Assembly: GCA_018373675.1 (NCBI GenBank)
Contig: JAHAGQ010000010.1
Span: 1,349-65,348 of the forward strand
Direction: 5' to 3'
Length of the DNA stretch: 64,000 nt
From: Collinsella sp.
Lineage (GTDB): Bacteria > Actinomycetota > Coriobacteriia > Coriobacteriales > Coriobacteriaceae
The notes under the pieces are model-generated. The model had not been told where the DNA came from and ran no database searches. It was given only the letters and a program-made list of their open reading frames with translations. A program made the position numbers and the translations under genes. Of the stretch, positions 767 to 3,700 are shown piece by piece. Positions within the stretch are counted from its first letter, which is position 1; the number at the start of each line of letters is the position of its first letter.

Positions 767-3700
767 TTACTCCTCGTCGTTGTCCTTGGCCTCTTCGGCG
801 TCGTCGGTGTCCACGAGCTGGTTGAGCAGCTCGTCGAGGGACGCCATGTCCTCGTTGATGGCACCGTTGGCGGGAGCCTTCTTGTCGTCGATCGGGGCGC
901 CCAGGAGCTCCTCGTCGGCGTCGGCGTGATGCGTCGGCGCAGCGGAGGTGCCCAGCAGGATGTCGTCCGGACCGTCGGGGCTAAAGACCATCTGCAGCAG
1001 CTGCGAGAGGTCTTCCTCGTCGGCAACGTCGTCGTTGTTCTCGAGGATGTAGAGCAGGTCGTGGGCCTCCAGGCCGTCACGGAGCTCCTCGATTGCCTTG
1101 GCACCGATGCCATCGATGCGCAGCAGATCCTCCTCGGACTTACCGACCAGGTCGCCGACCGTCTCGATGCCAACCTCGCTGAACTTGTTGGTCCAGCGTT
1201 GCGACACGCCCAGGTCGTCGAACAGGTACAGGCGAGCCTTCTCGGCGGAGATGGTGTGGCCGTTGCGGGTGAACGAACCGTCAGCACCGCCGAACTCGTC
1301 GTAGCCGGCCCAGTCGAGCTGCTGCGGAAGCTGCTCGTCCAGGTCCTTGAGCTCCACAGGAGCCCACTCGGGCAGCGACTTGGCGTTGGGCGAAGCCGGG
1401 CCGTCGATGTCCACGTAGCCGTCGGCCGTGCGATACGTCAGCTTGGCGTTGGCGTACGGCTTGAGGCCAGTACCAGCCGGGATCTTCTTACCGACGATGA
1501 CGTTGGACTTAAGGTCGAGCAGGTGATCGACCTTGCCCTCGATGGCAGCCTCGGTAAGGACGCCAGCGGTACGGATGAACGAAGCGCTCGACAGCCAGGA
1601 GTCGATGTTGGACGCGACCTTGAGCGTACCCAGGATGACGGGCTCGGCCACGGGAGCCTGACCGCCCAGACGGGCAACGCGCTCGACCTCGTCGGCGAAC
1701 TCGTAGCGGTCGACGTACTGACCAAGCAGGTACTTGGAGTCGCCGGGGTTGGTGATCTGAACGCGACGCAGCATCTGACGTGCGAGCACCTCGATGTGCT
1801 TGTCGTTCAGGTCGACGCCTTGGCTGGTGTAGACGTCCTTGACGCTCTCGACGAAGGTGTGCATCGTCGACTCGATGTCGGTCAGCTTGCGCAGGTTGCG
1901 GAAGTTGACGAAGCCCTTGGTGATCTGGTCGCCGGCGCGAACCTCGCAGCCGTCCTCGATCTCGGGCATAAAGCGCACCGAAGCGGGGACGCGACGCTCG
2001 TCGAGGACACGGGTGTGATCCTCGGAGTCGGTGAGCGTCAGCACGTACTCGGACTTCTCGGGCTTAATCGAGAGGTGACCGGAGTACGGAGCCAGCTCGG
2101 CCTCGCGGCCCAGGATCTTCTCGTTGACGTTGCCGACGATGTCGAACATACGGCTGACCGTAGGTAGACCCTGCGTAATATCGTCGACGCCAGCGACGCC
2201 GCCGGAGTGAATGGTACGCATCGTAAGCTGCGTACCGGGCTCGCCGATGGACTGAGCGGCAATAATGCCGACGGCAGTACCGATGGCGACCGGACGACGG
2301 GTGGAAAGATCCCAGCCGTAGCACTTCTGGCACACGCCGTACTTGGAGCGGCAGGTGAGCAGCGCGCGAAGCTTGACCTTCTTGAGGCCGGCATCGACCA
2401 TCTTCTGGATGTCGGCGACCTTCTCGATGTAGCCATCCTGCTCAAAGAGCACGGTGCCATCGGGAGCCACGACGTCCTCGATGAAGCAACGGCCGACGAG
2501 GTCGGTGTTGAGGTCGGTGGTGCCGGGGATGATGAGGTTGTAGGTGACGCCCTCGTGCGTACCGCAGTCCTCCTCGCGGACGATGACGTCCTGGGCCACG
2601 TCGACCAGACGACGGGTCAGGTAACCAGAGTCCGAGGTGTGGGATGCGGTATCGACCAGGCCCTTACGGGCGCCGTAGGTCGAAATGAAGTACTCGAGCG
2701 GCAGCAGGCCCTCGCGGAAGTTCGCCTTAATGGGAAGGTCGATCGTCTCGCCGGACATGTCTGCCATCAGGCCACGCATGCCGCCGAGCTGACGCAGCTG
2801 GGTCTTAGAACCACGGGCGCCGGAGTCGGCCATCATGTACAGCGGGTTCTCCTCGTCGAACAAGTCGAGCATGAGCGCTGCAACCTTATCAGTACAAGCG
2901 GTCCACTCGTTAACGACTTCGATGTGGCGCTCCGTCTCGTTGATGAAGCCCTCCTCGAAGTACTCGTTGATCTGGTCGACGTTGGCCTGGGCGCGGTCGA
3001 GCAGCTCCTGCTTCTCGGCAGGGATAAGAGCGTCCCACACCGAGATGGTGAGGCCGGCGCGGGTAGCGTAGTGGAAGCCGGAGTACTTGATGGCGTCGAG
3101 GATCGGGCCGACCTTGGCCTCGGGGTAACGATCGCAGCAGTCGGCAACCAGCTTGGCCACGTCGCCCTTGACCATCTTGTAGTTCATGAACTCATAGTCT
3201 TCGGGCAGGCACTGGCGGTTGAAGATGATGCGGCCGATAGAGGTCTCGAAGCGCGCGGTCTTGTTGCCGGTGACATCGTAGTCGACAAACTCGTTCTTGC
3301 CGTTCTTGACGCGGAAGATACGGGTGCCGTCCTCGTTGATGACGTTGGCATCGGCAGCGGACACGCGGACCTGGATCTTGGCCTGCATGTCGACCTCGGA
3401 GCGGCAGTCATAGGCGTGCAGCGCGTCATCGAAGCTCGAGAACACGTGGTTCTCGCCCGGCAGACCCTCGCGAACCTGGGTGAGGTAGTACACACCGATG
3501 ATCATGTCCTGCGAAGGGATGTTGACCGGCTTGCCGGATGCCGGCGAGCGCAGGTTGTTCGCAGAGAGCATGAGCACGCGGGCCTCGGCCTGAGCCTGGC
3601 TGGACAGCGGCACGTGGACAGACATCTGGTCGCCGTCGAAGTCGGCGTTGAAGGGCGAGCAGACCAGCGGGTGCAGGTGGATAGCCTTGCCCTCGACCAG

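Follow-up and report, generated by a model that had tools for sequence, protein, structure and literature searches.

The locus considered here raises the question of why a bacterial rpoC gene should run on well past the point where the beta-prime subunit of RNA polymerase (RNAP) normally ends, and of what the additional residues may do. The window, i.e., the whole stretch of DNA analyzed, comprises 64,000 nucleotides of a Collinsella sp. genome (assembly GCA_018373675.1, contig JAHAGQ010000010.1, positions 1,349 to 65,348) and contains an rpoC open reading frame (ORF) encoding a beta-prime subunit of 1494 amino acids (aa). An earlier note on this DNA had proposed that its last part resembles the alpha-subunit C-terminal domain known from RNAP (alpha-CTD) and is followed by an acidic tail. 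According to our analysis, the extension is a real module of beta-prime in Coriobacteriia, of ancient origin and maintained by selection. Three parts make it up, namely a linker of about 75 residues, an alpha-CTD paralogue and an acidic tail of about 95 residues with two conserved amphipathic helices. Its features are the following, with positions given in the window, residues numbered along RpoC, and structural assignments taken from an AlphaFold2 (AF2) model:

767..5251, minus strand: rpoC coding sequence, 1494 codons plus a TAA stop codon (767-769), from the ORF list, Pfam and NCBIfam.
1463..1492, minus strand: last universally conserved beta-prime motif, aa 1254-1263; the canonical core ends here or within about 15 residues.
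1235..1462, minus strand: partly ordered linker with a net charge of -6, aa 1264-1339, from AF2 secondary structure and composition.
1310..1375, minus strand: linker motif LPEWAPxELKxxEExLPQQLDW, aa 1293-1314, from alignments A1-A3.
1052..1246, minus strand: alpha-CTD-like double helix-hairpin-helix, or (HhH)2, domain, aa ~1336-1400, from sequence, AF2, Foldseek and residue mapping.
974..1018, minus strand: amphipathic motif DLSQLLxMVFSPD, aa 1412-1426, a predicted helix, from alignments and AF2.
815..859, minus strand: second tail motif SLDELL, aa 1465-1479, a predicted helix, from alignments and AF2 (helix 207-218).
770..814, minus strand: terminal polyacidic stretch, aa 1480-1494, conserved in composition and not in sequence.

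The main body of the protein is that of an ordinary beta-prime subunit. This is illustrated by the presence of all five Rpb1 domains in order (PF04997, PF00623, PF04983, PF05000, PF04998), of the catalytic motif NADFDGDQM, and of a TIGR02386 match of 1527 bits against a cut-off of 963. The boundary of the extension was located by searching aa 1101-1494 against the Protein Data Bank (PDB) with phmmer. In each of 76 solved beta-prime chains, homology ended at aa ~1263-1279 (query residues 163-179), and beyond this point the chains themselves continue for only about 6-45 residues. The extension is about 215-231 aa long (window 770-1462), and nothing in any solved beta-prime can be aligned with it. 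The earlier note was right that the ORF continues past the canonical end and placed the start of the region correctly, but its end lies at 1462 instead of 1400. The linker is modeled as two predicted beta-hairpins and one helix, with a predicted local distance difference test (pLDDT) score of 46-70. In its motif, the A, P, L and P columns are nearly invariant in the same three alignments, and the motif is recognizable as well in P0214, a beta-prime from a distant lineage. A conserved segment of 15 residues and a predicted beta-hairpin precede the alpha-CTD-like domain. The whole extension is negatively charged, with a net charge of -6 for the linker, -7 for the domain and -26 for the tail, hence -39 in total.

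The identity of the domain is supported by sequence and by structure prediction alike. PF03118 (RNA_pol_A_CTD) matches aa 1345-1395 (window 1067-1219) with E=1.2e-8 and a score of 34.9 bits, which exceeds the gathering threshold of 23.8, and several NCBIfam rpoA equivalogs match the same residues. When the extension was compared with PDB sequences by phmmer, RNAP alpha subunits made up the top 50 of 51 matches (best E=5e-6). With a profile of 18 homologues the best value was 8.5e-8 and every significant match was an alpha subunit. Conversely, tblastn with E. coli RpoA found one place only in the window, with 34% identity over 56 aa, without gaps (E=1.4e-5). In the AF2 model, built on alignment A3, pLDDT reached 82-87 at extension residues ~70-140 and was much lower elsewhere. 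The predicted domain has the compact four-helix double HhH fold; its second hairpin is a canonical GIG HhH (Pfam HHH_5, E=1.6e-3). In a Foldseek search of the PDB, ranks 1 to 49 were all alpha-CTD chains or full alpha subunits, and isolated alpha-CTDs superposed on the model with a root-mean-square deviation of 1.3-1.9 Å and a target TM score of 0.65-0.87. The resemblance to alpha-CTD first noticed in the sequence is thus borne out by a Pfam match above threshold, by the PDB sequence searches and by the agreement of AF2 and Foldseek.

Then, the residues by which alpha-CTD touches DNA and sigma were traced in the beta-prime domain. A gapless alignment with E. coli alpha gives 19 identities in 58 positions. 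The pairing proposed earlier was mostly correct but ran two residues out of register at its N-terminal end, where DDLGVSQRW corresponds to E. coli DDLELTVRS. In this register R265 corresponds to R1352, N268 to N1355, C269 to K1356, G296 to G1383, K298 to K1385, S299 to A1386, D259 to D1346 and E261 to G1348. Hence, R265, N268, G296 and K298 of the "265 determinant" are kept, with C269 replaced by lysine and S299 by alanine, and these four equivalents are invariant in the aligned Coriobacteriia sequences (A1, A3). Within the "261 determinant", by which alpha-CTD contacts sigma region 4, the D259 equivalent is invariant and E261 is replaced by an invariant glycine. According to the earlier note, the domain might supplement or mimic UP-element and activator contacts. 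Because the equivalents of R265, N268, G296 and K298 are conserved, a contact of the beta-prime domain with DNA is plausible, but its strong negative charge calls for caution.

An extension of this kind could in principle be an artefact or a separate gene, for instance if a missing stop codon or a frameshift had fused a small HhH gene to rpoC, or if an internal start were used. Gene callers do produce many short proteins starting within the extension, such as P0026, of 146 aa, whose start is the GTG of VSQRW. However, such calls either were cut off where a contig ends or stem from noisy assemblies with frameshifts, and P0015 and P0089 are out-of-frame junk. The frame contains no stop, nor does a separate HhH gene lie downstream, where a sigma factor of the extracytoplasmic function (ECF) type is encoded next. 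Among 80 Collinsella loci, 71 carry an intact ORF of 1494 codons including the extension, eight are cut by a contig end and one is broken. Continuous ORFs are likewise found in the best 120 homologues, in an Eggerthellaceae-type locus and in the distant P0214 lineage, and in database fragments from many assemblies, with identities as low as 45%, a single frame holds the end of the core together with the extension. The last 241 codons, compared between 70 distinct nucleotide variants, show 139 synonymous codon variants against one non-synonymous, a ratio inflated by the selection of these loci by protein identity. Because up to 3.2% nucleotide divergence leaves the protein unchanged across the whole tail, purifying selection acts in the rpoC frame. 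The GC content at third codon positions is 0.88 in the extension and 0.85 in the core, and past the stop codon lies a terminator-like hairpin, described below. Besides, the curated full-length equivalog model NF011498 (PRK14906, 1459 positions) spans the extension: RpoC residues 4-1493 match profile positions 2-1454 with 2590 bits against a cut-off of 1437, and the extension alone matches positions 1238-1454 with E=1.1e-74. A frameshift or read-through origin, which the earlier note had asked to be checked, is refuted by the intact ORFs, the synonymous variation, the 120 homologues and the Eggerthellaceae-type locus, and the probability left to any artefact or separate gene is negligible. As a separate observation, the HhH segment is internally duplicated in two public fragments of the extension (P0002 and P0010), and these duplications are probably assembly artefacts.

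The distribution of the module was pieced together from the names attached to homologues and fragments, the profile search covering 1.84 billion representatives. The extension is 100% identical in contigs of Collinsella aerofaciens and Collinsella sp.; the scan of genome contigs gave at least 592 matches, and those listed were all 100%-identical Collinsella loci. The cluster of proteins identical to RpoC has 7594 member sequences. PF03118 was found in 120 of the 120 best whole-protein homologues (1402-1499 aa), which include Collinsella vaginalis, Enorma spp., Coriobacterium glomerans PW2 and metagenome-assembled genomes of Coriobacteriaceae. More distant fragments comprise one labeled Atopobiaceae and others in a cluster containing an Adlercreutzia equolifaciens fragment, and the Eggerthellaceae-type locus has an intact rpoC of 1426 aa. 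The architecture is unusual, as first supposed, relative to all solved RNAPs, but it is normal in Coriobacteriaceae, Atopobiaceae and Eggerthellaceae. Further away, P0214 (L081, 10001-14659) is a beta-prime of 1552 aa from an uncultured environmental lineage; it shares the linker motif and ends in an alpha-CTD-like domain, without the acidic tail and without the DLSQLL motif. Its context, in a metagenome contig, is rpoB-rpoC only, and a search for relatives returned only two that share its extension.

Because NF011498 matches RpoC end to end, the NCBI annotation pipeline already models the long form; in CDD, PRK14906 presumably bears the title "beta-prime/alpha domain fusion protein". Our literature searches found no paper describing or testing a beta-prime/alpha-CTD fusion. 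A 2024 survey of beta and beta-prime insertions masked terminal extensions. The feature is class-wide in Coriobacteriia, already catalogued in databases and, as far as the literature searches show, experimentally unstudied.

The presence of an alpha-CTD-like domain on beta-prime could reflect either an extra copy or a relocation from alpha. Neither rpoA nor a second copy of the domain was found in the 64-kb window by tblastn and sequence search. A scan of metagenomes with C. glomerans RpsD yielded human-gut contigs in which RpsD is 86-89% identical. In one of them (L098, RpsD 86% identical), the gene after rpsD encodes an RpoA of 313 aa with PF01000, PF01193 and PF03118 (94 bits), and this RpoA is identical in five independent contigs. 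From similarity and habitat only, these contigs are probably Collinsella. Since RpoA of this close relative keeps a normal alpha-CTD, the beta-prime domain would be extra and not relocated, and three domains of the alpha-CTD type are to be expected in the holoenzyme. Identity of the beta-prime domain is 43% with the alpha-CTD of the L098 RpoA and 34% with that of E. coli, which fits, without proving it, a derivation from the rpoA of the lineage itself. Candidates for RpoA among the profile matches were rejected, all being proteins with multiple alpha-CTD repeats. It was also observed that the ribosomal-protein cluster of Collinsella-type genomes (L091-L093) is broken right after uL24, with rplE through rpoA elsewhere, and that in C. 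glomerans (L090) it continues at least to rpsD with one transporter gene inserted.

The tail had been described as acidic and about 100 aa long, and this holds: aa 1401-1494 (94 residues) contain 29 D/E against 3 K/R, a net charge of -26. It is nevertheless more than an acidic filler, as the alignments reveal two conserved motifs. In the DLSQLL motif, the D, L, L, F, S and P columns are invariant and a helix is predicted (149-160 of the model, pLDDT ~71). The Eggerthellaceae form of the second motif (SLDxLL) is EELDALLGSVGSLGFG, and it recurs at the N-terminus of P0211, a protein described below. As an observation on the same operon, the C-terminus of RpoB (window 5252-5430, minus strand) is also acidic, with a net charge of -18 over its last 60 aa, and holds a motif resembling SLDELLNQL of the beta-prime tail. 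Acidic beta tails occur likewise in the Eggerthellaceae-type locus (L087) and in the P0214 locus (L081).

Close relatives of the beta-prime module were also found outside RNAP, in two large proteins (1022-1090 aa) that are 38% identical to each other:

L083, 8001-11273: P0211, in an Ssp/Dnd-like island.
L084 and L086, 8001-11069, and L085, 5429-8497: P0257, in an Ssp/Dnd-like island.

The extension profile matches P0211 with 98 bits and P0257 with 73 bits, far better than any RpoA. Indeed, their N-termini carry a beta-prime-type domain that is 53-63% identical to that of the Eggerthellaceae-type beta-prime, and a helix-turn-helix (HTH) of the Sigma70_r4 type comes after it. In P0211, the tail motif is present too, upstream of the domain (EELDALLSSIDLAGFGF): the segment SYRRSPEELDALLSSIDLAGFGF precedes the domain and aligns with SYQRNLEELDALLGSVGSLGFGL of the beta-prime tail, and the N-terminus is 47.5% identical to the tail of P0107 over 40 aa (E=1.8e-5). 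Since tail motif and domain travel together in this unrelated protein, the sequences suggest that they work as a unit. Both loci contain genes for a PAPS-reductase, a DUF4007 protein, a BrxC/PglY-like ATPase and a cysteine desulfurase; the P0257 locus additionally holds WYL, Dnd-associated, AAA and PLD-helicase genes as well as relaxase/ParAB. From this gene neighborhood, the context is that of Ssp/Dnd-like phosphorothioate defense on mobile DNA, and PADLOC returned for P0211 and P0257 only weak matches in the HTH region (PglW, MzaA). Apart from these two, alpha-CTD-like domains were observed in various other proteins (P0182, P0185, P0186, P0189, P0195, P0242, P0298, P0286, P0261). Some of these consist of 8-12 tandem repeats, others have 2-4 such domains fused to ResIII/Helicase_C (and Mrr), and one has the end of an RNA_pol_L domain N-terminally followed by three alpha-CTD copies.

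From these data, we lean, with little more than even confidence, toward a function of the beta-prime-borne domain as a flexibly tethered extra contact for DNA or regulators, modulated by the acidic tail. Because the C-terminus of beta-prime presumably emerges beside omega in RNAP structures, a linker of about 75 residues could reach the upstream or the downstream duplex. From this additional contact point on beta-prime, the domain would touch the DNA backbone or minor groove through R1352, N1355 and K1356 and through G1383 and K1385 (E. coli R265, N268, C269, G296 and K298), and regulators might also dock on its surface during initiation. By folding back on the domain or by competing with DNA, in a form of auto-inhibition, the acidic tail would regulate it; alternatively, the LSQLL and LDELL motifs of the tail may recruit a partner. 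Several observations weigh against this interpretation. Some alpha-CTD determinants are lost (S299 to A, K297 to A, E261 to G), and, short of some regulation of the charge, a net -7 on the domain and -39 on the whole extension disfavors binding to DNA. In P0214, the equivalent of N268 is a lysine and the tail is missing, so that the tail is not obligatory for the role of the domain. In addition, the AF2 model is of low confidence beyond the domain (pLDDT 40-70), and the RpoA contig was placed in the lineage by similarity and belongs to another assembly than the window.

The negative charge of the domain itself is the main argument for taking other explanations seriously. The domain may be mainly a platform for protein docking without meaningful DNA binding, the LSQLL and LDELL motifs recruiting a putative lineage-specific transcription factor, sigma or other partner, and the conserved "DNA-contact" residues being kept for the fold or for partner recognition. 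Such a role would be consistent with the charge of domain and tail, with the resemblance of the short amphipathic motifs to peptide ligands, with the reuse of the module in P0211 and P0257 beside a Sigma70_r4-type HTH, where it could be an adaptor, and with the well-known function of canonical alpha-CTDs as activator targets. Nevertheless, the equivalents of R265, N268, G296 and K298 are solvent-exposed DNA contacts in alpha-CTD and are invariant in the aligned Coriobacteriia, and a GIG HhH such as the second hairpin is a textbook binder of DNA backbone; we regard pure docking as unlikely, if worth keeping in mind. A quite improbable explanation is that the polyanionic tail is a built-in nucleic-acid mimic, like Firmicutes delta or sigma70 region 1.1, which would clear non-specific DNA or RNA and aid recycling and promoter selectivity, the HhH domain being an anchor or spacer. 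The acidic composition of the tail is indeed conserved while its sequence drifts, and beta of the same operon, of the Eggerthellaceae-type locus and of the P0214 locus is acidic-tailed as well. However, conservation within the extension is highest in the HhH domain and not at the acidic end, the P0214 lineage keeps the domain without the tail, and there is neither similarity to delta nor a Pfam match to HARE-HTH in RpoC. Finally, the module might be a self-interacting, switchable "port" on Coriobacteriia RNAP, from which P0211 and P0257 would have copied the domain (and P0211 the tail motif also) in order to plug in or compete there. We consider this very improbable; if it were true, defense based on DNA modification would be coupled directly to the transcription machinery of the host.

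The surroundings of rpoC are those of the rplJL-rpoBC cluster. The rpoB gene (5252-8743, minus strand) abuts rpoC, and another locus (L088) encodes an identical beta-prime in the gene order L10, L12, rpoB, rpoC. The exact start codon of rpoC is uncertain: the rpoB stop codon adjoins the TTG taken as start (window 5246-5254), and the database protein P0446, otherwise identical to RpoC, is annotated two codons shorter (1492 aa). Downstream, RNA folding revealed the following element:

704..737, minus strand: GC-rich hairpin (710-737) resembling a terminator, with U6 (704-709) after it, about 30 nt past the rpoC stop codon.

The hairpin has a folding energy of -32.3 kcal/mol (z=-3.9), and none of 200 shuffled sequences was equally stable. 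The hairpin and U6 together resemble an intrinsic terminator separating rpoC from the ECF sigma gene; a simple pattern scan for terminators after rpoC gave no match, the element having emerged by folding. The ECF-type sigma factor gene (168 aa, window 21-524, minus strand) is the first one downstream of rpoC, and rpsL-rpsG-fusA-rpsJ come after it. In L002 (6922-8473), the ECF sigma gene is followed by an ORF of 358 aa of unknown function, possibly an anti-sigma, and in C. glomerans (L089) rpsL comes straight after rpoC.

The alpha-CTD is the classic handle by which UP elements and activators recruit RNAP, and nearly all knowledge of it was gained with enzymes that have exactly two of these handles, each carried by alpha. 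Coriobacteriia, including Collinsella, relatives of Eggerthella and Atopobiaceae, are Actinomycetota abundant in the human gut and appear to have a third, differently anchored handle together with an acidic tail. Should DNA or regulators be bound by the domain, the architecture of promoters and the geometry of activation could depart from the textbook in this class, which would matter for engineering and for interpreting gene regulation in drug-metabolizing gut Coriobacteriia. The value of the present analysis is to point to an uncharacterized yet clearly selected feature, the link with defense islands being a second lead.

Compared with known systems, the beta-prime domain belongs to the same sequence family and fold as alpha-CTD (PF03118; PDB 1COO, 3K4G, 1LB2, 1Z3E), which is likewise joined to the RNAP core by a flexible linker. 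However, alpha-CTD sits on the alpha N-terminal domain in two copies per enzyme, whereas the beta-prime domain is C-terminal, occurs once per enzyme and has another anchor. It is also extended N-terminally by a beta-hairpin, and conserved motifs and the acidic tail come after it. It is much more acidic, its net charge being -7 over 61 aa where E. coli alpha-CTD has -3 over 81 aa, and it further differs from the latter by S266 to W besides the replacements of C269, S299, K297 and E261 given above, D258 and D259 being kept. With Firmicutes delta (RpoE) and sigma70 region 1.1 it shares a long, disordered and strongly acidic RNAP-associated segment, by analogy only, as neither has a sequence relationship to the beta-prime tail; delta is a separate subunit with a HARE-HTH domain, whereas the tail is covalently part of beta-prime and has conserved hydrophobic motifs. 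NF011498/PRK14906 describes the same architecture as RpoC, with no structural difference, and is an annotation model only. P0211 and P0257 differ in that the module lies in other host proteins, in mobile or defense loci, and in P0211 the motif comes before the domain, the reverse of the order in beta-prime. The other alpha-CTD-like proteins outside RNAP have PF03118 domains in common with beta-prime, their helicase fusions carrying ResIII/Helicase_C.

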